Shown: in pieces, positions 6,242 through 64,000 of the stretch
Layout: each line of letters begins with the position of its first letter
Numbering within the stretch: the first letter of the stretch is position 1
Assembly: GCA_965219955.1 (NCBI GenBank)
Contig: OZ244799.1
Coordinates: 1,376,001-1,440,000, forward strand
Reading direction: 5' to 3'
Source of the DNA: a bacterium
Lineage (GTDB): Bacteria; UBA8248
Length of the DNA stretch: 64,000 nucleotides
The notes under the pieces: generated by a model
What the model was told of the DNA's origin: nothing
The model's database searches: none
The model's input: only the letters and a program-made list of their open reading frames with translations
Made by a program: the position numbers and the translations under genes

Positions 6242-7285
6242 CTAAGCAACCTTGTGCGTTCCGCTTCCGGCGGAGCGCACGTCCACCAAGAACAACTCGA
6301 GCGCCTGCCGAGCCGCCCTCACGTCGCTCGTACGCTTGAGCTTGCGATCCACCTGAAGCAACTTCCCGTACAACTCGCGCAGATGGGTCGAACCCAGCCC
6401 CCTGACCTGATTCTCAAGCCTTTTCCCCACGAAAGGCGGCAGACCCAGCACCTGGGAAATCCCCTGGGCGCCCCGGCCGTTTCGAATCAGGGCCTTTGAA
6501 ATCGTCCAGCGCCTGATCAGATTGCGCAACACACCGACGAAAACAACGGGGTGTTCGGTTTCCATCATCCGGCGCAAGAGAACAAGGGTTCCACTCAAGC
6601 TCCCCTGGCTGAGCGAATCACCCAGCTTATAGAGCAACTCTTCTCTGGAGTGTCCGATGATTTCACGAATCTCATCTTCGCCGGCCAGTGTTCCCGGCAT
6701 CACGAATGAGGCGATCTTCTCGAGCTCGGTACTGAGCCTCATCATGGAGGGCTTGACCATTTCGACCAGCAAACCGGCGGCTTCCGGACGCAACTCAAAT
6801 CCCAACTCCACGGCGCGCCCATGAAGCCATTTCTTCAATTCCTCCCCCTCCAGGCTATCCACCCGACAAACCACGCTCCCCTTTACCAGGCGTTGGAAGA
6901 AAGTGGTCCGCATGTCGATGTTTTCCGCGCAAAAAACAAGAACCGTCGACTCGGACGGGTGCTCGAGGTAAGAGAGAAGGATGGATTCATCCCTCTCGCC
7001 CGGCCTGGCGAAATTGAGAACTTCGATGAGGCGTCTCTCCGCGATGAACGGCAGCGTCTGGGCAATGGCAATGATTTCGGACGCATCCGCCTCAGTCCAG
7101 TCGAAACGGTCATGGTTGAAATCACCCGGCTCATCACCAAAAACCTTACGGCGAACGACGCGCAGGTATTCATCCCGCAAAAAGGAATCCTCACCCTCCA
7201 AAAGGTATACGGGTTGAATCGGCGAGTTTTTCACATCGGATAGCGCCGCCAGGGAACTCTTTGGCTTTTTGCGGCTCGGGGACAA
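6242..7285 (-). CDS. holA: DNA polymerase III delta subunit
   Basis: PVYLLEGEDSFL, AQTLPFIAERRLI, ELEKI; lptE-holA-rpsT context. Confidence 0.9.
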   Translation of the reverse strand: MSPSRKKPKSSLAALSDVKNSPIQPVYLLEGEDSFLRDEYLRVVRRKVFGDEPGDFNHDRFDWTEADASEIIAIAQTLPFIAERRLIEVLNFARPGERDESILLSYLEHPSESTVLVFCAENIDMRTTFFQRLVKGSVVCRVDSLEGEELKKWLHGRAVELGFELRPEAAGLLVEMVKPSMMRLSTELEKIASFVMPGTLAGEDEIREIIGHSREELLYKLGDSLSQGSLSGTLVLLRRMMETEHPVVFVGVLRNLIRRWTISKALIRNGRGAQGISQVLGLPPFVGKRLENQVRGLGSTHLRELYGKLLQVDRKLKRTSDVRAARQALELFLVDVRSAGSGTHKVA

Positions 7286-9307: not shown

Positions 9308-10540
9308 TTATGGACGCTGCAAGTAGGATTCCTTGCCGTCCTTCCTCTTCTTTTGCATGGACGGCAAAGGCGGCTCCATGTCCACCGCCACCCTGTCTTC
9401 CAGTTCGAGGCCATAGCCTTCGAGCGCAACAATCCTGCGCTCATCATTCGTCATGATCCGAATCCGGCGCAAGCCCAGGTCCACGAGGATCTGGGCGCCT
9501 ATGCCGTAATCGCGCAATCCCTGGAACGGCGCGCTCTTGATCCTGATTTTCTCATCCACCTCACGCGCACCGGAGGCCACCTGCTCTTTTCTGGGAAATT
9601 CCTCTCCCATCGAATCGGGTTGTAAAAATACCAACACACCCTTGCCCGCTTCCTGAATCTTGGCCAGCGCGCTTCTGATCCTGTCCGGACAATCGGAGCG
9701 TAAAAGCGCCAGCAAATCCCAGATGGCATTCACCGGCTGCACCCGAATGTGGGTGGGCTCGTCCGGGTTCAAGTCCCCCATCACCAAAGCGGCGTGAATC
9801 CTTCCGCTGCTTTGATTGTGGTACGCATACACCTTGAACGTGCCGAATACCGTCGGCACCTCGGCCTCCTCCACACGCTCCACGAGGCGATCGTGACGCA
9901 TGCGGTAAGCGATGAGATCCTTGATGGTCACAAGGGAGAGATTATTCTTTTCCGCCACCTTTCGCAGGTTGGGCAGACGCGCCATCGAACCGTCTTCGTT
10001 CAATACCTCGCAGAGAACACCCGCGGGCTGAAGGCCGGCCAGACGAGCCAAATCCACCGTGCCCTCCGTGTGGCCTGCTCTCCTGAGCACGCCCCCCGGC
10101 TGCGCCCGCAGCGGAAAAATATGGCCCGGCGTCACGAGGTCCGACGGCCTGGCGTCTTCCTGTATGGCGGTTTGTATGGTGTGGGCCCTGTCGAAGGCGC
10201 TGATGCCTGTGGTGACGCCTTCGCGCGCTTCTATGGAAACCGTGAAAGCCGTGCCGAAAGCGGAGCCGTTCTCGCGGCTGGGCACCATCATGGGAAGACC
10301 CAGCGATTCCACCTTCTCCGGCGTGAGCGCGAGACAAACGAGGCCACGCGCATGTTTCGTCATGAAGTTGATCGCCTCGGGCGTCACCCTCTCGGCCGCC
10401 AGGATGAAATCGCCTTCGTTCTCGCGGTCCTCATCATCCACCAGGACGACGATGCGGCCCTCGCGGATATCGCCAATCGCCTCTTCAATCGTGGAGAAAG
10501 GACTCGCGCCCAAATCCTTTTCCTCCCTCGGCTCAGGCAT
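9308..10540 (-). CDS. ribB: 3,4-dihydroxy-2-butanone-4-phosphate synthase fused to a degenerate GTP cyclohydrolase II domain (RibBX-type)
   Basis: DDEDRENEGD, TAFTVSIEA, PGHIFPL, RAGHTE intact; the C-terminal RibA-like part has RDYGIGAQIL but lacks the Zn-binding Cys cluster. Confidence 0.92.
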   Translation of the reverse strand: MPEPREEKDLGASPFSTIEEAIGDIREGRIVVLVDDEDRENEGDFILAAERVTPEAINFMTKHARGLVCLALTPEKVESLGLPMMVPSRENGSAFGTAFTVSIEAREGVTTGISAFDRAHTIQTAIQEDARPSDLVTPGHIFPLRAQPGGVLRRAGHTEGTVDLARLAGLQPAGVLCEVLNEDGSMARLPNLRKVAEKNNLSLVTIKDLIAYRMRHDRLVERVEEAEVPTVFGTFKVYAYHNQSSGRIHAALVMGDLNPDEPTHIRVQPVNAIWDLLALLRSDCPDRIRSALAKIQEAGKGVLVFLQPDSMGEEFPRKEQVASGAREVDEKIRIKSAPFQGLRDYGIGAQILVDLGLRRIRIMTNDERRIVALEGYGLELEDRVAVDMEPPLPSMQKKRKDGKESYLQRP

Positions 10541-38715: not shown

Positions 38716-39053
38716 TCACTCTTTCATTGAGGGAGCTGTTGAAAAAGCCCTGACTTCGTGATTCGGCGTATGAAACCGGCCGGGGAGGGAGGGTTTGACA
38801 CGATGGGATTGTAGGGGCGGTTCGCGAACCGCCCCTACGGGCGAATGCGGTTTTGATCGTCATTCCGGCGAAAGCCGGAATCCATTTGCGGATGCGGGTG
38901 CATGAACGACGGCGTTTCATTCCCCGCCGATGCGCAAGAACCCTGACGAAAGGCAAAAAGCATAAAATGGATTCCGGCTTTCGCCGGAATGACGGGGATG
39001 GCCAATTCCGAGCGAGGAGGGGTTTTTCAACAACCCTCCCAAGGGGGGAGTGA
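38716..39053. mobile_element. Composite element E3: copy of E1 enclosed by family-C half-palindromes
   Basis: Shell GGAGCTGTTGAAAAAGCCC (38732) / GGTTTTTCAACAACCC (39036); GTAG palindrome 38811-38838; arms 38858-38994; outer TCACTCTTTCATTGAGG / CCCAAGGGGGGAGTGA; an extra shell end at about 38634-38652. Confidence 0.82.
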
Positions 39054-39096: not shown

Positions 39097-39846
39097 ATGT
39101 TCAGCCAACGGGCGGTAGACGCTCTCAAAGACGCGGAATCGGTGGCCGTCCTGACCGGGGCGGGCGTGAGTGCGGAGAGCGGCGTGCCCACCTTCCGGGG
39201 CGCGGGCGGTCTCTGGCGCGAGTACAGCGCCACCTCGCTGGCCACGCCCGAGGCCTTTCGCGCCGATCCCAGGCTCGTCTGGGAGTTTTACAACTACCGC
39301 CGCGAGGTGCTCGACCCCCTGACGCCCAACGCGGGCCACTACGCCATCGCCTCGCTGGAGGAGCGCTTCGCGCGCTTCGCACTCATCACGCAGAACATCG
39401 ACAACTTGCACCGCGTCGCCGGGACGCGCGAGATCGTGGAGTTGCACGGCAACATCTGGCGCGTCCGCTGCACGAACCTGGGCTGTGAGCGCTACACGCT
39501 CGCGTGGGAGAACCGGGACGTGCCGATCGACCCCCTGCCCCCGAAGTGCGAGGCGTGCGAGAGCCTCCTGCGCCCCCACGTGGTGTGGTTCGGTGAGATG
39601 CTCGACCCCGAGCAGTTGCGCCGGGCGCTCGTTGCGGTGGATGATTGCGATTACCTGATCGTGGCGGGCACGTCCGCCGCGGTGCAGCCGGCCGCCTCGA
39701 TGCCCATGACGGCCTCAAGGGGCGGCGCGTTCGTGCTCGAGGTGAACCCCGAGCCGACGGACATCAGCCCGTACATGAGCGAGGCGGTGCAGGAGCCCTC
39801 GGGCGTCGCCCTGCCCCGCCTGTTCGAAGCGGCCTTTGGAGGATAG
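39097..39846 (+). CDS. cobB: NAD-dependent protein deacylase (sirtuin)
   Basis: TGAGVSAESGVPTFRG, YxxR, TQNID.LH, HGN, RPHVVWFGE, GTS; ATG 39097 with GGAG upstream. Confidence 0.95.
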   Translation: MFSQRAVDALKDAESVAVLTGAGVSAESGVPTFRGAGGLWREYSATSLATPEAFRADPRLVWEFYNYRREVLDPLTPNAGHYAIASLEERFARFALITQNIDNLHRVAGTREIVELHGNIWRVRCTNLGCERYTLAWENRDVPIDPLPPKCEACESLLRPHVVWFGEMLDPEQLRRALVAVDDCDYLIVAGTSAAVQPAASMPMTASRGGAFVLEVNPEPTDISPYMSEAVQEPSGVALPRLFEAAFGG

Positions 39847-42643: not shown

Positions 42644-43152
42644 ATGAACGACGATACCGTAGGGCCTGATGAAAATCTCAGGAATTCATGGTTCGGGATA
42701 TGCAGCCGACCGGCGAGAGAGGAGACTTCACTCCCTCTTGAGAGACTGGTTTCCCGAGGGGAAAGCCAGACGATGAAGTCGAGCGGTTTGTGCGAAGGCC
42801 GATTCGGCAGGGGGTTCACCACAAAGTCGTCATTCCGGCGAAAGCCGGAATCCATTTTGACTTTTCATCGGGTGGAGCGGCCACAACCTTGTTGTCGCGC
42901 AGCGTACGGATGCGGAATCCAGGGAATTCGCCTTTCGTTTTTGTGTTCGATTCCGCTCTTCCCTGCCCGGGAGTAAAGACGTCCGATCGAGGAAGCGCAA
43001 AGGCAAAGGCGAAAATGGATTCCGGCTTTCGCCGGAATGACGGCAATCACGGCTTGCAGGACTTTTTCAACAGCCCTCAAGGGGGAGTGAATTCATAAAC
43101 TCATGTCGGCTGAAAATCCATTCCCTGTTTGAGGAAGGAGTTGCAGCAATGA
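42644..43152 (+). pseudogene. Probable remnant of a RelE/ParE (Gp49-like) toxin gene, interrupted by a repeat mosaic
   Basis: 5' stub MNDDTVGPDENLRNSW; 3' stub LRKELQQ* whose TGA overlaps the antitoxin ATG (ATGA); the middle is repeat sequence; family assignment inferred from the partner gene. Confidence 0.5.
42727..43091. mobile_element. Composite repeat element: family-C ends + paired CGTC arms with long cassette + one TIR-shell end
   Basis: TTCACTCCCTCTTGAG / CTCAAGGGGGAGTGAA; GAGCGGTTTGTGCGAAGGC shared with the element at 45405; arms 42828-43042; GGACTTTTTCAACAGCCC at 43059-43076. Confidence 0.82.
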
Positions 43153-44716: not shown

Positions 44717-45193
44717 ATGGTGGAATCCGTAGACAAGGAAGTGATGGCCAAACAGGAGCGCCGCGTGCGCGCCACGCGCGCGGAGGGCTGCCGGGTCGAG
44801 TTGAAAGCGCGCAAGCACGCTTTCGTCGCCGATGAACCGGCGCAGGGCGGCGGAACCGACACGGGCCCCACGCCGCGCGAACTGGCGCTCGGCGCGCTTT
44901 CCGCCTGCATCACGGTCATCACGAACAAGGTCGCCGAGGGACTCGACTTCAACGTCATCGCCCAGGAGGTGGAGGTCCGCGGCACGGCCGACCCCCGGGG
45001 CGCCAAGGACCCGGACAACGGCATCAGCCCCAACTTCGATTACGTGGAGGCGAAAATCCACCTCACCACGGACGAGCCCGACGAGCGGGTGGCCGAACTC
45101 AAGCGCCAGCACCACGGGCGCTGCCCCATCTCCGCGCTCTACCGCGAGAGCGGCTGCGAACTGGTGGAGGAGTGGATCGTCAAGCGGCCCTGA
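44717..45193 (+). CDS. OsmC family protein
   Basis: DEP..GGTDTGPTPREL.LGALSAC...RCPI; AAGGAG RBS. Confidence 0.88.
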   Translation: MVESVDKEVMAKQERRVRATRAEGCRVELKARKHAFVADEPAQGGGTDTGPTPRELALGALSACITVITNKVAEGLDFNVIAQEVEVRGTADPRGAKDPDNGISPNFDYVEAKIHLTTDEPDERVAELKRQHHGRCPISALYRESGCELVEEWIVKRP

Positions 45194-45321: not shown

Positions 45322-45383
45322 GTAGGGGCCGTTCGTGAACGGCCCTCCCCAGAAAAAGCGGGCGGTTCTCGAACCGCCCCTAC
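45322..45383. repeat. GTAG-type REP doublet
   Basis: GTAGGGGCCGTTCGTGAACGGCCC ... GGGCGGTTCTCGAACCGCCCCTAC. Confidence 0.8.
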
Positions 45384-45404
45384 GAAACCCTCTTGAATCG
45401 GGAA

Positions 45405-45569
45405 TCACTCCCCCCTTGAGGGGGAGTCGAGGAAGCCGAGCGGTTTGTGCGAAGGCTGATGCGGTGGGGGGTAAAATGCGTTTTATCGCCATTCCGAATT
45501 ATACCCCCCACCGAATCGCTTTCGGGCTTACGCCCTCAGCTCTTCGACTCCCCCTCAAGGGGGGAGTGA
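45405..45569. repeat. Intact family-C palindromic element
   Basis: Perfect 26-bp inverted repeat TCACTCCCCCCTTGAGGGGGAGTCGA (45405-45430 / 45544-45569) with an inner CGGTGGGGGGTA/TACCCCCCACCG stem. Confidence 0.85.
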
Positions 45570-45673
45570 ATCACTGTTCTCCTCAGTCGGGGCTGGCACC
45601 GGAATGACGAACCCAGCCAAACGGTGGTGCGGCTAACTGCGGCGGCGCGCCGCTTAGCGGGAGGCTTTCGCCC

Positions 45674-46117: not shown

Positions 46118-46227
46118 GTTGGGTGTCCTTTTTGCTCGGTGTGACGCGAAATGATAATCAAACGAGGGTATGATTCTAACAAGACGTGGCGTTTTACTCC
46201 ACAGACCCTTATCTCTCAGGAACCTGG

Positions 46228-46908
46228 ATGTCAGCCGAATCCCTCATCCTGTTCGCCAAACCACCCCTCGCCGGCCGGGTGAAAACGCGCCTCGCCGAAA
46301 GCCTCGGGCGCGAGGGCGCCGCGCGTCTCTATTCGTGTTTCCTTCGAGACGCAGCCGAAACGGCGCGCACGCTTATGGAGGCGAGGCCGGGCGTCTCCCT
46401 CGTCTGCGAGTGGGCGCTTGAGCACGGTGAATCGCTCGATGAGTTTCCGCTCACGGACTGGCTGCCCGGCGCCTTTCTCCACCGGGCGCAAACGGGTGCG
46501 GACATTGGCGCGCGCATGGCGGCGGCGATGGGGCGATGCCTGGCTTTCGGGAGGAATGCTGTGCTCATCGGTACGGATTTCCCGGATCTTCCGCACGAAG
46601 TTCTGATCGATGCGTTCGAGAAGCTGGATTGCGGGGATGAGCCGACCGTCGCGCTCGGTCCCGCTGCGGACGGGGGCTACTACCTGATCGGGATGAACCG
46701 GTTCCTGCCTGAAATTTTCACCGGCATCCCCTGGAGCACGGGCGAGGTGTTCTCGTACACGATGGAGAAGGCCGCCGCGCTCGGCGTCGGGACTGCCCTC
46801 CTCCCCGAGTGGTGCGACGTGGACGAGGCGGATGATCTGGAAGCTCTGAAGAGCCGCCTCTCGCAGGACGCATCGCGCGCCCGGCACACGCGGGAATACC
46901 TGCGCTGA
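46228..46908 (+). CDS. TIGR04282/DUF2064 family glycosyltransferase-like protein
   Basis: LILFAKPPLAGRVKTRL, QTGADIGARM, LIGTDFPDL, LGPAADGGYYLIG, IPWST, DVDEADDL. Confidence 0.9.
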   Translation: MSAESLILFAKPPLAGRVKTRLAESLGREGAARLYSCFLRDAAETARTLMEARPGVSLVCEWALEHGESLDEFPLTDWLPGAFLHRAQTGADIGARMAAAMGRCLAFGRNAVLIGTDFPDLPHEVLIDAFEKLDCGDEPTVALGPAADGGYYLIGMNRFLPEIFTGIPWSTGEVFSYTMEKAAALGVGTALLPEWCDVDEADDLEALKSRLSQDASRARHTREYLR

Positions 46909-46987
46909 TCCGCCCGGGGCGTTTGCGCCGCGTAGCTCAAAATGAAAGGATTGGCGCCTCAGTCCGCCGAACGATGAGGAGCGCGCA

Positions 46988-47617
46988 TTGCCGAACGAAT
47001 CCGTCGTAGAAGCCACGTATACCTATTGCGTCCACTGAGCCTGGTGCCTGATCGCGACCGGGCGGTTGCGAACACTGAGCGAGCAGGCCGGCGGACGCCT
47101 CGCCATCCGCTACCGCGCCTTTCTGCTCTCGCCCGAGCCGGACCATCGTCCGGCCCGCAAGGAGGCCATCATGGGCCACTGGGCGATGGCGAAAAGCCAC
47201 CCCGGCGGCGAGGCGATCAACCCCGAACTCATGGCGCGCCGCGACTTCCCCTACCCCCACTCCACCCCCGGCGCGATTGCGATAAAGGCCTTCGCCGCCC
47301 AGCTCCCCGAGCGCGAGGGCGAATATCTCGAAGCCGTGGAGCGAACGCATCTGGTCGAATGCCTGAGCATCGACGACGCCGACGTGCTCGTGGCCGCCGC
47401 CGAGCGTCTCGGAGCGGAGCCCGCGATCATGCGCGAGGTCATGGCCGACCCGGACATGGAAAAGCGCGTATGGGCGGATCACATCGAGGCCGTGAACGCA
47501 GGTATCCAGTCCACGCCCACGGTCGATTTTTCGGGCAAATACAGGATCACCGGCGCGCAGCCCATGGCGATATTCGAGCAAACCCTCAAGCGCGCCGTGG
47601 CCGATCAGGACACCTAA
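46988..47617 (+). CDS. DsbA/FrnE-family thiol oxidoreductase, probable selenoprotein (in-frame TGA = Sec17)
   Basis: TTG start with GAGGAG upstream gives MPNESVVEATYTYCVH-U-AWCLIA, in frame with track ORF 47066..47617 (YRAFLLSPE...GIQSTPT...ITGAQP). Confidence 0.8.
47052..47071 (+). promoter_or_regulatory. Putative bacterial SECIS hairpin
   Basis: TCGCGACC-GGGC-GGTTGCGA: 8-bp stem (one G-U), G-initiated loop beginning 21 nt after the TGA at 47036-47038. Confidence 0.65.
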
Positions 47618-47624
47618 ACCCACT

Positions 47625-48530
47625 ATGCGAGAAGGCGGCCGGGCTGCAAGAGTTATCGCCGTTCTGGCGGTGCTCCTGGCGCTTGCAGGCTGCGCGAACA
47701 TCCGCGCCCTCTTCCTGCCCAAAGAAGAAAAGAAGCCGGCGCTTGAAACAAAACGACCGCGGATGAAAAAAGCAGAAGACCCTCATTTTTTCCGCGTCCT
47801 GACGCTTCCCACTTACGACTTGGCGAAAGAGGCGTATGACAAGACGGCCATCCTCGGGATTCCCTTCCGCAAGGTGGCCCTCGAGTTCAGGGATAAGGCG
47901 GTCGCCGTCCGCAAGGCCGAGCCCTCGGAGTTCAGCGTCGGCGTCCGGGCCGAGGTGCAGGATTTGAAACTCGGCGCCACGTCGAGAATCATCGAGTCGG
48001 ACGAGGGATTTTCGATTCTCCAGAAAACGACAAGCGCGCATTACGAACGCGCGCTGAAACTCATGGAGAAGAAAAAAGACGAGGCCGCGCTTGCGCTCAT
48101 CCGCCGCGATCTCGAGATCAACCCCGGAAACGTGGACGCCTGGCTCGCCCTGGCGAAGATGATGGACGAGGCGGGCGATCTGGAGGAGACGCTCGCCGCG
48201 TACGGGAAAGCCCGCGAACTCGACCCCGGGAACCCGGCCGTCTCCAACAGGTACGCCAGATACCTGGTCTCCCAGTACCGCTACGAAGAGGCGGAGGAAA
48301 TACTGAGAGACGCGGAGAAAAAATCGCCCGAGGACACGGGCGTGCTCCTGAACCTCGCCTCCCTGCTCGTCTACCTGAACAAGGAGCCGGAATTCGCCTC
48401 GCGCCTCATCGATCGCGGCTCCAGAATCGACCCCGGCCGCGCGGAATGGTACCGCCTCTCGGGCGTGATTCGGAAACGAAGGGAACTCGGCATCGCGCCG
48501 AAAGCGGAGGGAACAAATCAGAAACCGTAG
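47625..48530 (+). CDS. TPR-repeat lipoprotein with parvulin-like N-terminal domain
   Basis: Lipobox LAGC; TPR helices (INPGNVDAWLALA, AYGKARELDPGN); LKLGATSRIIESDEGFSIL resembles a PpiC C-terminus. Confidence 0.72.
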   Translation: MREGGRAARVIAVLAVLLALAGCANIRALFLPKEEKKPALETKRPRMKKAEDPHFFRVLTLPTYDLAKEAYDKTAILGIPFRKVALEFRDKAVAVRKAEPSEFSVGVRAEVQDLKLGATSRIIESDEGFSILQKTTSAHYERALKLMEKKKDEAALALIRRDLEINPGNVDAWLALAKMMDEAGDLEETLAAYGKARELDPGNPAVSNRYARYLVSQYRYEEAEEILRDAEKKSPEDTGVLLNLASLLVYLNKEPEFASRLIDRGSRIDPGRAEWYRLSGVIRKRRELGIAPKAEGTNQKP

Positions 48531-48598: not shown

Positions 48599-48998
48599 AA
48601 CTCCCCTCTTGGGGGGTTGTTGAAAAAGTCATCCTTGGTCGGAATTGACCACCGCCGTCATTCCGGCGAAAGCCGGAATCCATTTTGACTTTTCACCCGA
48701 CGGGGCGGCCACGACTTTGTTGTCGCGCGGTGTCCGGATGCGGAATGCAGAGGATACGCCTTTCGTTTTTGTGTTCGATTCCGACCCTCCCCGTCCGGGC
48801 TTAAAGACGTCCGAACGAGGAGGCGAAAAGACAAAGGCGAAAATGGATTCCGGCTTTCGCCGGAATGACGAACAAAACCTCACCGTCTCACAGGGACAGG
48901 TCGCGGACCTGTCCCTACGGGAAAACACGTCTCCCTGCCAAACCCCCAATCCCCCTTGTCAGGGGGATTTTTTCAACAGGCCCCTCAAGGGGGGAGTT
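48599..48998. mobile_element. Composite element E4: family-C ends + inverted E1-type shell + long cassette + GTAG palindrome
   Basis: AACTCCCCTCTTG / CAAGGGGGGAGTT outside; GGGGTTGTTGAAAAAGTC (48613) / GATTTTTTCAACAGGCCC (48983); arms 48656-48870; AGGGACAGGTCGCGGACCTGTCCCTAC at 48892-48918. Confidence 0.85.
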
Positions 48999-49199
48999 GA
49001 TTAGAAATTCTCTTTGGTGGAGAGAGATGCTGTAGATTACGCACACCGGGTTTTAGAAACCTGCACCTGTCGAGAAACCCTCGTTGCTCAGTCGGGTTTC
49101 ACCCCTTGGCCCCCTACGCTCTTATGCGTCATAATGCCCTCTGTTCTCGAACCACGCGAAGTTTCAAGCCGACACGCCAATTCATAAGAGGGCAACCGC

Positions 49200-57030: not shown

Positions 57031-58119
57031 CTAATGCCCCTCCCCCAGTGGCAATTGCACGGCCTCTCCCGTTTGGGAAGACAATTCCATCGCGATCGTC
57101 ACCTCCAGGGTTTGGCGCGCATCCTCAGCCGTGGCGTGCGTTGTAGCTCTCCCATTGATCACATGATCAAGCCAGCTTCTCGTTTCGTCACCCAGCGGGC
57201 CCCAATAATCACCCGCCGCCCAGTCGCCAGGGGTCGTGCTGCTCAAAAATGCCGTGTTGATGTGATGATCCGGTATGTATGTGTGCGGAATTCCCTTGTC
57301 GGTGTACAGCATCTCATCCTTGTGGTCTTCATCCAGCATTAAAACGCCATCCGTACCGTAAATCTCCATCCTCACACTCTGGCCCAGCGCCGGGTATTTC
57401 GCAGGCAGGGCATAAAAAACGCCCAAATTCATCACAGCCCCATTGTCAAACGTGACGATGGACCAGGTGACATCGTTCGCCGAATACCCGTGTTCTTTAT
57501 AGATTTTCCCGTTTCCCCGGGCGACAACTTCCACCGGTCGATGACCTTCCATGAACCAGCAGGCCATATCCACCCAATACGTGAGCACGTCGAGCACAGG
57601 CGTTGCGTGGGGGGAGCGCTTCAGGATCTGGAGCCCCTGGGCGCGGGTGTTACAGGTTCGACCCGTGCCTGCGAGAATCTCCCCGAGTCTCCCTTGAATA
57701 ATTTGCTCTTTCGCCATCTGGTAGCGACGTTTGAATCGTTGGGCATAACCTACCCTGAGTTCAGTACCTGTCCTCTCGGCAACCGAGAGTATCCGGTCCG
57801 CATCCTCCAATGTCAGGGAGATCGGTTTTTCCACCAATACCGGCTTGCCTAATTCCAGGGCATGGATGATGGAATCGGCGTGATCGTGCTCGGGCGTGGA
57901 TACGATGACCGTCGTAACTTCGGGGTGTTCAATCACTTCGTCATTTCTGCCGGTAGCGAGTTGGGCGCCTACCTGCTCCCCCAATTCTTTCGCGCGGCCC
58001 TGATCGATATCGGATACCGCCAAAAATTCAAGAGACGGATGATGTGAAACCAAATTCGCTCGCAGGGTTCCGATTCTGCCGGAACCAACAACACCTACTC
58101 CCAATGACTTTTTGCTCAT
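57031..58119 (-). CDS. Gfo/Idh/MocA family oxidoreductase
   Basis: GSGRIG, STPEHDH, GKPVLVEKP, VGYAQRF. Confidence 0.92.
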   Translation of the reverse strand: MSKKSLGVGVVGSGRIGTLRANLVSHHPSLEFLAVSDIDQGRAKELGEQVGAQLATGRNDEVIEHPEVTTVIVSTPEHDHADSIIHALELGKPVLVEKPISLTLEDADRILSVAERTGTELRVGYAQRFKRRYQMAKEQIIQGRLGEILAGTGRTCNTRAQGLQILKRSPHATPVLDVLTYWVDMACWFMEGHRPVEVVARGNGKIYKEHGYSANDVTWSIVTFDNGAVMNLGVFYALPAKYPALGQSVRMEIYGTDGVLMLDEDHKDEMLYTDKGIPHTYIPDHHINTAFLSSTTPGDWAAGDYWGPLGDETRSWLDHVINGRATTHATAEDARQTLEVTIAMELSSQTGEAVQLPLGEGH

Positions 58120-58208
58120 TTTGACCCTCTGGATATTCTTAAAGAGTAATCTCGTAACACAAGCCTACGAAGAAACACGCCGCTTCTCTTCAGCTACACG
58201 AACAAATC

Positions 58209-58236
58209 AAAAAAAACCGGCCTCAAAGGAGACCGG
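58209..58236 (-). terminator. Rho-independent terminator after pnp
   Basis: CCGGTCTC-CTTT-GAGGCCGG followed by T8 on the minus strand. Confidence 0.82.
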
Positions 58237-58260
58237 CGCAAACATCATCATTTGGTTTCA

Positions 58261-60396
58261 TCAGGTCACGGGCGCATAAAATTGCTTCCATTCTTCGGGC
58301 AACTCTTCTTCTGTCACATCTTTCATCGAGAGGCGAATTCTCCCATTTCCTTCCACTTCGATGCATTTCACCAAAACCTTCTGACCTTCTTTCAAGACAT
58401 CGCTCACTGAACCGATTCTCTTCTTGGCAATCATGCTGATATGGCAAAGGCCATCCGTTCCCGGGAATATTTCGACGAATGCTCCAAAGTCCATGATCTT
58501 TCTGACTGTACCATAGTAAACCGTGCCCTTTTCGGCTTCCTGAGTCAGTTCACGAATGATCTCTATGGCCCTAAGGGCTGCCGCCTCATCGGTGGAAGAG
58601 ATGAAGATTGTTCCATCATCTTCAATATCTACATCCGCCCCCGTCTCCTCGACGATTCCGCGAATCACTTTCCCGCCAGGCCCAATCACATCCCTCACAC
58701 GATCTTTCGAGACCTGTATCGTCATAATCCTCGGCGCGTAGGGAGAAATCTCTTCGCTAGGCTGGGAAATCACTTTATCCATCTGCTCGAGCACGTGCAT
58801 TCTCGCATCGTTGGCCTGCGCCAAAGCATCTCTCACGAGGCGCAATTGCAATCCTTTGATCTTGATATCCATTTGAAGAGCGGTAATGCCATGACGCGTA
58901 CCACCGACCTTGAAGTCCATATCCCCCAGATGATCTTCCAGCCCAAGGATATCCGTCAGTATTGCTGTTTTTCCTGTGGATTCTTCACTGATCAACCCCA
59001 TGGCAATGCCGGCCACTGGAGATGTTATCGGTACGCCCGCACTCATCAAGGCCAGGCTGGCGCCGCAGATGCTCGCCATGGATGAGCTGCCATTGCTCTC
59101 CGTGATGTCTGAAACAACCCGGATTGTATAGGGAAAATCTTCCTGCTCCGGCAATATCGCCTGCACTGCCCGAGATGCCAGCGCGCCGTGGCCGATTTCG
59201 CGGCGACCCGGGCCGCGGTTTGGTTTCGCTTCCCCAACGCTAAACCCGGGGAAATTATAGTGCAGCAGAAAAGTCCTGTCGGCTTTCCCGTCCAGCGTGT
59301 CTATCAATTGGGCCTCGGAGGCAGTGCCAAGCGTCACCGTCACCAACGCCTGCGTCTCACCTCGTGTGAACAATGCGCTGCCATGGGGTCTGGCAAGGGG
59401 CGACATTCTAATGGTAATCGGCCGAACATCACGAAGCCCCCGGCCATCCGAACGTTTCCCCTCATCTAAAATCAAGCCCCGGAAAACTTCTTTCTCGATT
59501 TTGCCAAAATAATCTGAGACAACTCCCTTATCCGCAGACCCTTCCTCGTCTGCGCAAAGAGTATCGACCGCGGCAGCTTTCGCCTCATCGATAGCGCTAT
59601 ATTGTCCCGCTTTGTCGTGAATCTCTGCAGCCGCTTGTAGTTTGGGAACCACAATTTCACGTACCTTCCCCATTAGTTCCGCATCTTCTTCCTCAGACTC
59701 GACTACACGTTTGGTTTTTCCGCATTCCGCCCTAAGTTCATCCTGCATAGCGCACAACTCTTGAATCACAGAATGGCCTTGCTCGAACGCTTCCATGTAG
59801 ACGTCTTCGGAAACTTCAAAGCTGCCGGCTTCCACCATGACTATCGCGTCCGAAGTTCCAGCCATCACACAATTCAGATCGCTGTCAATTTGCTGTTCGA
59901 CCGTCGGATTGACAATAATTTCGCCGTCAATTCGCCCGACGCGAACAGCACCGATAGGACCGGAGAATGGGATATCCGAAATGTGGAGAGCGGCGGAAGT
60001 TCCATTGATTGCCAAAATGTCGGAATCGTTCAACTTATCGTAAGACATGACCATGACCTGAATCATCGTCTCACAACGAAATTCCTTCGGGAAAAGAGGA
60101 CGGATAGGCCTATCGATTAAACGACAAGTTAATGTTTCCCTCTCGCCAGGTTTTGCCTCGCGCCGGAAAAAATTGCCGGGAATAATTCCTGCGGCGTAGA
60201 AAAACTCTCGGTAATCAACTGTAAGGGGGAAAAAATCTATTCCCTCACGTGTAGAGTGCGAAGCGCAAGCCGTACACAGCACACTGGTCTCACCATAATG
60301 CATCATTACGGCGCCACCGGCTTGCTTGGCGATCTCACCTGTTTCAAAGGCAAGAGTATAACCATTGATGGATATGTCTTTTCGATACGGTGGCAT
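58261..60396 (-). CDS. pnp: Polyribonucleotide nucleotidyltransferase (PNPase)
   Basis: DFFPLTVDY, RLIDRPIRPLF, FTRGETQ, ESNGSSSMAS, EDHLGDMDFK, KH and S1 domains. Confidence 0.98.
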   Translation of the reverse strand: MPPYRKDISINGYTLAFETGEIAKQAGGAVMMHYGETSVLCTACASHSTREGIDFFPLTVDYREFFYAAGIIPGNFFRREAKPGERETLTCRLIDRPIRPLFPKEFRCETMIQVMVMSYDKLNDSDILAINGTSAALHISDIPFSGPIGAVRVGRIDGEIIVNPTVEQQIDSDLNCVMAGTSDAIVMVEAGSFEVSEDVYMEAFEQGHSVIQELCAMQDELRAECGKTKRVVESEEEDAELMGKVREIVVPKLQAAAEIHDKAGQYSAIDEAKAAAVDTLCADEEGSADKGVVSDYFGKIEKEVFRGLILDEGKRSDGRGLRDVRPITIRMSPLARPHGSALFTRGETQALVTVTLGTASEAQLIDTLDGKADRTFLLHYNFPGFSVGEAKPNRGPGRREIGHGALASRAVQAILPEQEDFPYTIRVVSDITESNGSSSMASICGASLALMSAGVPITSPVAGIAMGLISEESTGKTAILTDILGLEDHLGDMDFKVGGTRHGITALQMDIKIKGLQLRLVRDALAQANDARMHVLEQMDKVISQPSEEISPYAPRIMTIQVSKDRVRDVIGPGGKVIRGIVEETGADVDIEDDGTIFISSTDEAAALRAIEIIRELTQEAEKGTVYYGTVRKIMDFGAFVEIFPGTDGLCHISMIAKKRIGSVSDVLKEGQKVLVKCIEVEGNGRIRLSMKDVTEEELPEEWKQFYAPVT

Positions 60397-60428
60397 TAGA
60401 TGACTTCCCTCTGGGGCAAGACCCGCAT

Positions 60429-60698
60429 CTAGCGACGCAGGCCCAGATCCTGAATTATCGTGCGGTAGCGGTTGATGTCTTTTTCTTTCAGATAATCAAG
60501 CAGGCGACGGCGCTGACCCACGAGTTTCAGTAGACCTCTGCGGGAATGATGATCTTTCTTGTGGGTCTTGAAATGGTCTGTGAGGTAGGTGATACGTTCG
60601 GTCAGGATAGCTACCTGCACTTCCGGTGAGCCAGTATCTGTGTCATGTGTACGAAATTTCTCGATAACTTCCGACTTTCGCTCCTTCGCTAGGGGCAT
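60429..60698 (-). CDS. rpsO: 30S ribosomal protein S15
   Basis: [38 protein letters not shown]. Confidence 0.98.
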
Positions 60699-60784
60699 TT
60701 CTGTCACTTCCTCCACAGCTTATATGTTGCTCTCTATCTTTTAAGCTTCATTAGCGCGAATGCAACGTCGTCAAAAACGCGCGG

Positions 60785-60813
60785 ATTTTATACGACTTTG
60801 CCATCAATGTAAA
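60785..60813 (-). promoter_or_regulatory. sigma70-type promoter for rpsO-pnp
   Basis: TTTACA-17 bp-TAAAAT. Confidence 0.6.
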
Positions 60814-60837
60814 TACAAAGCGTATTCTCTCGTGATT

Positions 60838-61782
60838 CTATGTGACAAATACTTTTTCAGGCGCCACAAACCCTTGGTTTCGTTTTCGTTTCCTTTCATG
60901 GACCGTCTTCCCGACCGCCAATAACTCTCCCGGTTCATTTAGCATACGGACGCGAGTATCTGCCGGCAGATCAACAACTTGCTGAACATCTTCAAACCTG
61001 ACTATCGCACCATTCAATACCCGCACCTCCGCACTGGGGTGCACGTAGATGGCAGGCAAATGTGCAAGCGCCTGCGCCGGACTCATCAGAATGTCCTGAA
61101 GGCGTTTTCCTTGCAAGTGACGATGAACATCCTCGATAGAAACGGAATCTGATAGCTCAAACGGACCCAAAGCCGTCCGCGTAAGGGCCTGCAAACATCC
61201 ACCGGACCCTTGCTTGGCACCAATATCATGACAAATTGAACGAATATATGTTCCCCGAGAGCATGTGACATCAAAGGTAAGTTGTGGACCATCCATACCA
61301 ATCGCCTTGATCCTAAATACTTCAATTTGGCGCTTTTCTCTTTCAACTTCCTTGCCAGAACGCGCTAATTCATGCAGGCGCTTTCCATTGGCCTTCAATG
61401 CAGAATACATCGGAGGTACCTGCATTGTTTTTCCCAATATCTCACTTAAAAGCTCTTGCGCTCGAGAAAGTGAAATATCACCCGGCTCAGTTTCAGCCAG
61501 CAATTTTCCCGTAATGTCCTGTGTATCTGTCACTCGCCCAAACAACATGACAGCCCGATACGTTTTCTTGCACTCTAAAAAATATGAGAACAATTTTGTC
61601 GAATTACCGATACAAATCGGCAAAACTCCTTCGGCCATCGGGTCAAGCGTACCCGCATGCCCGACTTTTGTTTTTCCGGGAAGCAGCTTTCTCACTTCAT
61701 CAACCATATCATGTGAGGTAGGACCGTGTTTTTTCTTCAGATTCAAAACACCCGAGAGTTCCAACATCTTGTCCTTTTTCAA
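60838..61782 (-). CDS. truB: tRNA pseudouridine(55) synthase
   Basis: KVGHAGTLDP, TDTQD, QVPPMYSALK, CSRGTYIRS. Confidence 0.97.
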   Translation of the reverse strand: MKKDKMLELSGVLNLKKKHGPTSHDMVDEVRKLLPGKTKVGHAGTLDPMAEGVLPICIGNSTKLFSYFLECKKTYRAVMLFGRVTDTQDITGKLLAETEPGDISLSRAQELLSEILGKTMQVPPMYSALKANGKRLHELARSGKEVEREKRQIEVFRIKAIGMDGPQLTFDVTCSRGTYIRSICHDIGAKQGSGGCLQALTRTALGPFELSDSVSIEDVHRHLQGKRLQDILMSPAQALAHLPAIYVHPSAEVRVLNGAIVRFEDVQQVVDLPADTRVRMLNEPGELLAVGKTVHERKRKRNQGFVAPEKVFVT

Positions 61783-62138
61783 AATGATCTCTTTGCACCG
61801 GATAACAAACGTTCAATTTCGTCGCTGAATGCCAAACTCCGGTCGGCAAAGAATTTCAGCCTGGGTGTACATTTCAATTCCAAGCGTTCGGCAAGTTTTC
61901 TCTGCAAGAATCCACCGGCTCGTTCAAGTCCCTCGAGACCCTCTTCCATCTCCTTGACATTCCCTTGATTTTCACCGTAACGGCTAAAGTAGACCTTCGC
62001 AACTCTCAAATCCGGGGATATTTCGACTCGAGTGATCACAACATGCCGCACACGCGGGTCCTTCACATCCCTCATCACCAAGTTAGCAAGTTCGGATTGT
62101 ATGAGTTCAGAAACGCGCAGTATGCGAGCATTACCCAT
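61779..62138 (-). CDS. rbfA: Ribosome-binding factor A
   Basis: VKDPR, SPDLRVAKVY, TPRLKFFAD. Confidence 0.94.
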   Translation of the reverse strand: MGNARILRVSELIQSELANLVMRDVKDPRVRHVVITRVEISPDLRVAKVYFSRYGENQGNVKEMEEGLEGLERAGGFLQRKLAERLELKCTPRLKFFADRSLAFSDEIERLLSGAKRSF

Positions 62139-62162
62139 TTGTTGAATTGCTCTCCATGAATT

Positions 62163-62447
62163 TCAAAAAATCTCGATATCAAAATCCAGGATAATCACCA
62201 GCCCCGTTCCCTCAAGGAAATTCAGCACTTTTCTAAGTTGGCTATCTACAAGTCGACAGTCATTGCTCACCACGCAAACGCCGATGCGACATCTCTGCCA
62301 CTTATCCTGGAAACCGACTTCAGCGACAGAAACATTAAAACGCTGACGCAGACGTGTTGTTATCGATTGAACTATCTTGCGTTTTGCTTTGAGCGAGCGG
62401 CACTCGGGAATCTGAACATCGATATTCAAAAGGCCAACGAAAGGCAT
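62163..62447 (-). CDS. DUF503 (YlxP) family protein
   Basis: SLKAKR, FNVSVAEVGFQDKWQ; between infB and rbfA. Confidence 0.92.
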   Translation of the reverse strand: MPFVGLLNIDVQIPECRSLKAKRKIVQSITTRLRQRFNVSVAEVGFQDKWQRCRIGVCVVSNDCRLVDSQLRKVLNFLEGTGLVIILDFDIEIF

Positions 62448-62490
62448 GGATAGAAAATATCAAAAAAAGCGACACAAGACACAAATCAAC

Positions 62491-64000
62491 TTAAAGCGTC
62501 CGAGATACTTCTTCTGTAATATATGGTTCTATGATATCGCCTTGCTTGATGTCGTTATAATTCTCAATTCCGATTCCACACTCATAACCAGATTGGACCT
62601 CGTTCACATCATCTTTGAACCGCCTCAAAGATGAAATTTTACCCGTATAGATAACTACATTATCCCGGATGAGACGCACACTTGAATTTCTATTGATATT
62701 TCCGTCGATGACATAGCAACCCGCTATCGTCCCCACATTGGGAACATGAAACAGCTCCCGAATTTCCGCGTGCCCGCGGACTATTTCTCGCTGAACGGGC
62801 TCGAGTATTCCTTCAAGAGCCGACTTTATTTCATCGATAGCGTCATAGATGACGGAATATAATCGAATATCTACTTTTTCATGTTTCGCGACTTCCCTGG
62901 CTCCTGGCGTCGGACGAACATTAAAGCCTACGATAACGGCCGCCGAGGCAGCTGCGAGCATCACATCGGTTTCGGTAATACCACCCACCGCACTATGTAA
63001 AACCTTAACTCCTACTTCCTCATTCCCTAACTTGCCCAAGGATTCTTTCAATGCCTCTATGCTTCCCTGCACATCTGCTTTCAAGATTAAACTCAACTCT
63101 TTTACCTGGCCTTCTTCTACACTTTCCATGAAACTTTCCAAAGAAACGCGCGCAGAAGCCATAAGCGCAGCCATTCGTTCACGTTGTTGGCGCCTGGCGC
63201 TTATCTCTCTTGTCATCTTCTCATCTTCTAAAACGGTAAATGTATCACCAGCCTCAGGAACACCGGCGAAACCTAAAATTTCTACTGGCGTAGAAGGGCC
63301 CACAAGCTTCAACTTGCGGCCTTGGTCGTCCAATAGTGCGCGAACTTTGCCACTCCATTTGCCAGCCACGAAATTATCACTCACATTCAAAGTGCCTCGT
63401 TGAACCAAAACCGTAGCCACCGGTCCTCGTCCCCTATCCAACTTCGCCTCAACCACAACACCACTAGCGAGCCGGCTTGGGTTGGCCTTCAACTCCATGA
63501 GTTCAGCCTGCAAAATGGCAAGGTCCAAAAGCTCATCAATTCCGAGATTCTCTTTTGCGGAAATTTCAGAATAAACCGTATCTCCACCCCAATCTTCCGG
63601 GATTAAGTCCAATGTTGAGAGTTGTTGTTTTACCCTGTCGGGATTTGCATCTGCTAAATCCATTTTATTCATCGCCACCATAATCGGAACTCCAGCGGCC
63701 TTCGCATGATCGATCGCCTCTCGAGTTTGGGGCATGACGCCTTCATTCGCCGCTACAACGATGATTACCAAATCTGTCACTTGCGCCCCACGCGCCCTCA
63801 TTGCTGTAAAGGCTTCATGCCCAGGGGTATCTAAAAATACAGCCGTCCCCTTGTCCGAAGTAACTCGATAGGCACCTATATGTTGAGTGATCCCACCAGC
63901 TTCGCCTTCCATCACATTGGCTTTACGGATGGCATCGAGAAGCCTCGTTTTCCCATGATCAACATGACCCATAATTGTTATGACAGGAGCCCTGGGCTGA
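62491..64000 (-). CDS. infB: Translation initiation factor IF-2 (5' part outside the window)
   Basis: [46 protein letters not shown]. Confidence 0.98.

Follow-up and report, generated by a model that had tools for sequence, protein, structure and literature searches.

A predicted selenocysteine-containing FrnE-like oxidoreductase with an additional cysteine encoded in a UBA8248 bacterium

Results

The gene and its neighbourhood

The window, that is, the whole stretch of 64 kb that was analysed, derives from a bacterium of the UBA8248 lineage. On its plus strand we found a frame that runs from a TTG to the stop codon at 47615–47617 and contains a single internal stop, a TGA in the context Y-T-Y-C-V-H-*-A-W-C (Table 1). 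The preceding in-frame stop is located at 46943. A preliminary description of this DNA had extended the frame through the TGA to a TTG with a GAGGAG ribosome-binding site, yielding the motif YCVH-U-AWC, and every feature stated there is present. In the mechanical ORF list the gene begins further downstream, at the TTG at 47066, and encodes 183 amino acids; the database forms of the closest related proteins (about 183 residues) begin at the equivalent codon. A scan of GTDB resulted in 80 related loci (L001–L080), of which the 22 closest (L001–L022) and the window gene are referred to below as the clade. A purine-rich GAGG/GGGG element followed by a TTG start is common to the window and L001–L019.

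The gene upstream (46186–46908, plus strand) encodes a glycosyltransferase of the TIGR04282 family (172.7 bits, cutoff 134). Downstream, a TPR gene with a lipoprotein-like signal (47625–48530, plus strand) starts 7 nt after the stop codon and adjoins the gene in L001–L019 as well. The TIGR04282 gene is adjacent in L001–L018 and about 1 kb off in L019; the flanks of L020–L022, the three most distant members of the clade, lack it. L001–L018 share the gene order, which there extends over unrelated genes from hisS to an Ada-like gene; L019 keeps it more loosely, and neither L020–L022 nor L023–L080 have it. A functional link to the TIGR04282 gene was rejected because the adjacency is confined to L001–L019. 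Judged from this distribution, the conserved neighbourhood is a matter of shared ancestry and no evidence for a role related to arsenic. Further upstream in the window, an OsmC-related protein is encoded at 44717–45193 (plus strand); it has a weak match, below cutoff, to the NF041052 OsmC-like (seleno)protein model (56.8 of 95), and its gene has no in-frame TGA.

Table 1. Features of the predicted selenoprotein gene (positions in the window)
Feature	Position	Strand	Remarks
Shine-Dalgarno-like GAGGAG	46976–46981	+	6 nt 5' of the TTG start
Gene for a predicted cytoplasmic DsbA-family (FrnE/FrnE-like) selenoprotein, 209 aa	46988–47617	+	TTG start; predicted Sec at residue 17
Cys14, replacing the family Asp at the end of strand beta-1	47027–47029	+	TGC in 23/23 clade members
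His16, clade-specific (Leu/Val in the sister subfamily)	47033–47035	+	23/23 clade members
In-frame TGA, predicted Sec17, nucleophilic position at the start of helix 1	47036–47038	+	Aligned with FrnE Cys22
Cys20, predicted resolving Cys of UxxC	47045–47047	+	22/23 clade members; Arg in L013
Putative bacterial SECIS-type hairpin, 8-bp stem, loop GGGC	47052–47071	+	Stem/loop fold and cross-genome comparison
TTG (Leu27) in the 3' arm of the hairpin; false start chosen by gene callers	47066–47068	+	TTG in 23/23 clade members
Helical-domain segment E118-x-x-H121-L-V-E-C125	47339–47362	+	Clade-specific Glu118, invariant Cys125
Thr176-Pro177, position of the thioredoxin-fold cis-Pro loop	47513–47518	+	Pro nearly invariant in alignment A5; cis geometry presumed from the thioredoxin fold

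Conservation of the in-frame TGA

We scored the 80 loci at the codon aligned with the window TGA. It is TGA in 46 loci and TGC or TGT in 24; the remaining 10 were not scored (seven read DCLSAWC, one reads DVLSCWC, one is cut by the contig end, and one has no reliable motif). All 22 closest loci, which share 49–94% identity with the window gene, have TGA and read C-[VI]-H-U-[AS]-W-[CR], and 24 further TGA loci occur in Chloroflexota, Actinomycetota and others. The frames of the related loci are open after the TGA. In a quick tree, which carried a long-branch warning, the window gene and the 22 loci form one branch of 23 rows with a support of 100. The codons upstream of the TGA and the start are conserved in the clade, and residues 10–26, on either side of the TGA, vary mainly at third codon positions, a pattern that the DNA upstream of the start does not show. 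The named close relatives are labelled Nitrospinota or Nitrospinaceae and, going by their names, are presumably sponge-associated.

The preliminary description had regarded TGC or TGT in close relatives as speaking against recoding; no such codon occurs at this position in the clade. A form of the clade protein with Cys at residue 17 was likewise not found among 21 protein hits, the best 150 of 567, a further 72 hits, or the 80 loci, with one of the protein searches scoring 8000 candidates. The motif occurs in none of the 34 clade database proteins retrieved in three protein searches, 21 close ones included. All 34 are annotated without their active site, and 46 species-level loci of GTDB in several phyla carry an apparently recoded TGA not covered by any NCBIfam model.

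In the databases, the clade is represented by truncated forms throughout, which would suit a real stop, in a pseudogene, by a sequencing error, or with a truncated protein starting at TTG 47066. We regard this as extremely improbable, and equally so a code in which TGA specifies Trp or Gly: against the former stand the TGA in 22 of 22 independent assemblies and the conservation of the upstream codons and the start, against the latter the usage of TGA and TGG in the window. TGA ends 16 of the 43 window genes, indicating the standard genetic code, and together with the 158 TGG codons present this rules out an alternative code.

Several loci display irregularities. Arg replaces Cys20 in L013 (10058–10060), L022 has a frameshift in the C-terminal third, and archaeal L068 has a TAG at a conserved Trp (10037–10039); these are probably assembly errors or signs of decay. 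In the protein pair P0189/P0029 (89% identical), one member is full-length with Cys and the other starts just past that codon, possibly indicating a recent Sec/Cys switch.

A hairpin follows the TGA in most TGA genes and is rare in Cys genes

Downstream of the TGA, an 8-bp stem (47052–47059 paired with 47064–47071) encloses a GGGC loop (47060–47063) that starts 21 nt after the UGA; the folding energy is −11.8 kcal/mol. These values agree with the preliminary description of an 8-bp hairpin with a G-initiated loop at bacterial SECIS spacing. According to the bSECIS model (PMC13188914, section 5), the loop has 3–9 nt with a G in its first two positions, the stem has 4–16 bp, the distance from the UGA is 16–37 nt, and the folding energy is at most −7.5 kcal/mol. 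The window hairpin lies within all four limits as implemented in our own script, which is not bSECISearch. Run over all 1965 TGA trinucleotides of the window, this script accepts 127 (6.5%), and 37 of 1965 reach −11.8 kcal/mol. Folding energy was rejected as evidence for a SECIS element, as the 60-nt region folds no better than shuffled sequences (z −0.75). Taken alone, the hairpin is weak evidence for a SECIS element.

It is the comparison across genomes that raises the hairpin above chance. When its position was left free, a hairpin of at most −7.5 kcal/mol was found in 37 of 47 TGA genes (window included) versus 3 of 24 Cys genes. Requiring the loop to start at +20 or +21 left a stem of at least 5 pairs with a G-started loop in 43 of 47 TGA genes versus none of 24 Cys genes; the exceptions among the TGA genes are L062, L069, L071, and L077. 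In the subset with 4-nt loops (29 genes, 25 distinct), pairing holds in 150 of 150 cells, and two of the base pairs have undergone compensatory changes. The loop positions, the registers, and the 4-nt-loop subset behind these counts were all picked after inspection of the data. Forced into one register, the 47 TGA genes reached 69% pairing, and the Cys genes in that same register 53%, a level no better than that of shuffles (176/500).

The stem codons ACC, CGG, and TTG are fixed in all 23 clade members, and TTG accounts for only 9% of the 482 Leu codons in 13 window genes. Usage of a single codon was also observed at 10 of 50 invariant degenerate residues downstream, and many members of the clade are closely related. 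The start codon chosen by gene callers is this stem TTG, in the hairpin's 3' arm.

Selenocysteine as the probable meaning of UGA17

A search of the 64-kb window and of the DNA flanking the 22 clade loci found no selA, selB, selD, or tRNA-Sec, and tRNA-Sec was not found in the window, in 46 of the 80 loci searched with ARAGORN, or in 8 of the 80 searched with Rfam. A SelB-like match at window positions 63984–63616 is IF-2, located inside the infB-rbfA-truB-pnp run, and was rejected as selenocysteine machinery. In L024, a TGA gene of the sister subfamily described below lies 8.6 kb from a true selA (591.6 bits, cutoff 267.9). As listed in Table 2 of PMC13326102, three genomes labelled Nitrospinota, Nitrospinaceae, or Nitrospinae at NCBI and assigned to UBA8248 in GTDB carry 48–54 selenoprotein genes, which that paper places among the ten most selenoprotein-rich bacteria. 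Two further papers report UBA8248 from sponge microbiomes (PMC9531527) and separate it from Nitrospinota proper (PMC10839748). We also considered a second selenoprotein in the window and rejected it. The window holds 11 candidates that combine a TGA with a hairpin, this gene included; a recurring one at 39642 is an off-frame shadow of a Sir2 gene, and the remaining ones, judged by eye, appear to be gene ends or shadows.

In a few bacteria, tRNA-Cys species read UGA. With such cases in mind, and with the selenocysteine machinery not found in the window or the clade flanks, one may ask whether a special tRNA inserts Cys or another residue here. The hairpin, however, fits the canonical bSECIS model, the contig of a TGA homologue carries selA, and UBA8248 genomes appear rich in selenoproteins by the table cited above; accordingly small is the chance, in our view, of a special tRNA, which we hold to be very improbable. 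UGA17 is almost certainly decoded as selenocysteine, as far as sequence comparison can tell, and would be so through the hairpin that follows the codon (the SelB/SECIS route). The recoding proposed in the preliminary description is thereby strongly supported: all 22 closest loci carry TGA, Sec and Cys pair up across phyla at this codon, the hairpin tracks the TGA, and the genetic code is standard.

The predicted protein is FrnE-like and cytoplasmic

The read-through protein matches PF01323 with 46.3 bits versus 32.8 bits for the truncated form (cutoff 25.6); no NCBIfam cutoff was reached by the read-through protein. With a clade profile, SCO1869 and Deinococcus FrnE scored best by sequence among proteins of solved structure (E about 1e-10). 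The TGA aligns with FrnE Cys22 and so falls on the first Cys of the FrnE CPWC motif, just where it had been placed before. An AlphaFold2 model (117 sequences, U entered as C) had a mean pLDDT of 97 and a pTM of 0.92; it places a strand at residues 7–13, Cys14 just after it, and a helix at 18–34 following residue 17. The best fold match was 2IN3 (Z 25.9, rmsd 1.9 over 199 residues), followed by FrnE (Z 23–24), YjbH (23.1), and DsbM (22.2), with kappa GST and HCCA isomerase next in the ranking (Z about 19.5). Since YjbH, kappa GST, and HCCA isomerase share the fold, it does not fix the activity. No signal peptide was recognised in the sequence, strand beta-1 starting at residue 7, which indicates a cytoplasmic protein. 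Based on the model and the fold searches, the gene product would be a cytoplasmic FrnE or FrnE-like protein.

DsbA-like UxxC selenoproteins (COG2761, PF01323) are reported in PMC1088965, and a DsbA-like selenoprotein form 1 is catalogued in Table 1 of PMC13188914. As this group has been catalogued since 2005, the selenocysteine call for the gene is not new, and the gene may already be an entry in BSepDB. It belongs with form 1 by its PF01323 score above cutoff and its UxxC at the start of helix 1, and the clade shares with form 1 the Pfam domain, Sec as the first residue of UxxC, and a predicted SECIS directly downstream. From form 1, whose catalogue representative is NIP15863.1, the clade would differ by Cys for Asp at −3, His at −1, and a helical-domain signature of its own.

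Deinococcus radiodurans FrnE (5CNW/5CP1) and Streptomyces SCO1869 (3GL5) resemble the clade protein in having a CxWC-type motif and no signal peptide (Z 23–24, rmsd 2.1–2.3). They differ in that identity is about 20%, that the clade reads U-A-W-C where they have C-P-W-C, and that the clade protein lacks the C-terminal CxxxxC, has Thr before the cis-Pro, and carries the extra Cys14 and Cys125. The thioredoxin fold with a helical insertion and the missing signal peptide agree with FrnE (cd03024); assignment to the strict class was rejected, the motif being U-A-W-C and not CP(W/F)C and both the CxxxxC of many FrnE members and any C-terminal Cys being absent. The predicted protein may thus work like FrnE while falling outside the strict FrnE class. 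Compared by motif and fold with FrnE-like proteins (cd03025), which have C-x-W-C without Pro, U-A-W-C resembles the CGWC and CIWC forms, and the top fold matches are 2IN3 and YjbH. The FrnE-like Nitrosomonas protein 2IN3 (the top structural match), YjbH (6GHB), and Pseudomonas DsbM (5HFG) have the same fold at 16–20% identity; none is called a selenoprotein in its entry title, and YjbH is bound to Spx in its structure and has an extra region.

Two other assignments were rejected. The Rcas_1661 family thioredoxin-like (seleno)lipoprotein model NF041057 scored 24.5 bits versus a cutoff of 190 and matched the C-terminal part only. Proteins of the SelW/SelT/SelH type have a CxxU motif in which Cys occupies the nucleophilic position and Sec the second one; here, the predicted Sec matches the first FrnE Cys, and Cys14 falls in the Asp column.

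A sister subfamily with the motif HDVL-[U/C]-x-W-C (L023–L077) occurs in Chloroflexota, Actinomycetota, Bacillota, and some archaea. It shares with the clade H64-W65, M82, F-x-Y-P-x-S-x-P, and H121, and the SECIS-type hairpin lies at the same position in 20 of its 24 TGA genes. It differs by Asp at −3, Leu at −1, Gln118, and mostly Cys99, and Cys versions of it exist, whereas the clade was found with TGA only. Eight homologues (L067, L070, L072, L073, L075, L076, L078, and L079), several of them from Immundisolibacter and other Pseudomonadota, read DCLSAWC or DVLSCWC, with Ser at the nucleophilic position and Cys shifted nearby; this may be a second remodelled active site in the subfamily.

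Given selenocysteine at residue 17, the family relationships make a UxxC oxidoreductase very likely, most likely a cytoplasmic disulfide reductase or isomerase. By analogy with the family, the Sec17 selenolate would attack a substrate disulfide, and Cys20 would resolve the mixed selenenylsulfide. The enzyme would then be re-reduced by a thiol or thioredoxin-reductase system and might serve as a disulfide reductase or isomerase in protection from redox stress.

An additional cysteine and co-varying residues are specific to the clade

In alignment A5, all 102 non-clade rows (22 TGA and 21 Cys rows of the sister subfamily and 59 less closely related proteins) have Asp at −3 to the predicted Sec, where each of the 15 aligned clade rows has Cys. 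At the DNA level, the codon is TGC in all 23 clade members, down to 49% identity. Residue 118 is Glu in all 15 of these clade rows and Gln in all 43 sister rows, Cys125 is invariant in all 23 clade members, and Cys99, present in 37 of 43 sister rows, is lost in the clade. The preliminary description had noted an extra Cys at a position usually occupied by Asp and had suggested a resolving or metal- or metalloid-binding thiol. The swap is real and clade-wide; the metalloid idea gains nothing from the neighbour of the arsenosugar family, which reflects shared ancestry. As inferred from the sequences, Cys replaced Asp once, on a long branch, and for that reason the change is no proof of function. 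No literature source was found on DsbC Asp95 that would speak to the role of the family Asp. The motif CxxUxxC or C-x-H-U-x-W-C was not found in print, the 15 papers listed of 59 matches being unrelated, in a search whose scope excluded subscription papers, figures, and bioRxiv supplements.

In FrnE, the C-terminal CxxxxC regenerates the active site, and homologues without this tail must do so otherwise (PMC8945050, section 15). The tail being absent from the clade protein, Cys14 or Cys125 could plausibly stand in as an auxiliary thiol. In the reading that we prefer, the extra Cys14, possibly with Cys125, would act as an auxiliary thiol that recycles or protects the Sec-Cys centre. Taken as a whole, a cytoplasmic DsbA-family (FrnE/FrnE-like) selenocysteine oxidoreductase with an auxiliary Cys14 thiol appears likely to us; for Cys14 itself, a redox role can be proposed only tentatively.

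Cys14 may instead be a tolerated structural swap for Asp, fixed in the lineage and held by kinship, in an otherwise ordinary UxxC FrnE-like reductase. This alternative concerns Cys14 only and leaves the selenoprotein as it is. Many other changes lie on the one long branch that carries the clade, so the swap counts as a single event, and the model keeps the canonical fold, with pLDDT 97–98 around the motif. The constancy of the column argues the other way: all 102 other rows have Asp, and all 23 members have Cys, accompanied by His16, Glu118, and Cys125. We give an inert swap somewhat less than an even chance; if it applies, a long-known selenoprotein family has gained one more ordinary member.

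Cys14, His16, Sec17/Cys20, Glu118, His121, and Cys125 could also form a metal or metalloid site (Zn, Cd, or As(III)); the protein would then act in sensing, as a chaperone, or in detoxification, and reduction would not be its main task. Several of the candidate ligands were altered jointly in the clade, Deinococcus FrnE is induced by cadmium (PMC8945050, section 15), and TIGR04282 is by name an arsenosugar biosynthesis glycosyltransferase family. However, the flanks of L020–L022 lack the TIGR04282 gene although these loci keep the full motif, and we noticed no ars gene in the neighbourhoods that we examined. We consider such a site improbable.

Returning to the auxiliary thiol, we can envisage, as a rather unlikely elaboration drawn from the sequence comparison, that a FrnE-like site was rebuilt in one lineage as a three-chalcogen centre, C-x-H-U-x-W-C, in which CxxU and UxxC overlap. 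Together with the co-changed Glu118 and the fixed Cys125, such a centre might provide an internal electron relay that replaces the FrnE CxxxxC, or bind soft metals or As(III). As no form with Cys at residue 17 was found, it may work only with Sec. An otherwise invariant Asp beside a thioredoxin-fold UxxC has turned into Cys in a lineage found only with Sec, and the natural Asp/Sec, Asp/Cys, and Cys/Sec versions of this small, well-folded protein are suited to testing what a third chalcogen contributes: recycling, protection from over-oxidation, or metal binding.

Further observations in the window and the related loci

Intergenic palindromic repeats resembling REP/MITE elements occur in the window at 38800–39050, 42770–43090, 45360–45625, and 48600–49000. 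Among them are two 215-nt copies (42828–43042 and 48656–48870) that are 88% alike and have 38-nt terminal inverted repeats. From 58000 to 64000, the G+C content is 47–51% compared to 60–65% elsewhere, despite the core genes pnp, truB, rbfA, and infB, possibly indicating a compositional gradient or an assembly join.

In the related loci, a group I intron match lies within a large ORF of L024 (13570–13809), and Moco riboswitches were found in L020 (16066–16189) and L021 (18618–18741). The Anaerolineae contig L035 carries further UxxC candidates at 6329 (minus strand), 12178 (plus), and 13349 (plus), comprising two DYVUPWC DsbA-like frames, one of them confirmed as PF01323, and one LTUPYC frame. 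A glutaredoxin-like selenocysteine candidate with the motif PGUFTC is located in L074 at 2774.
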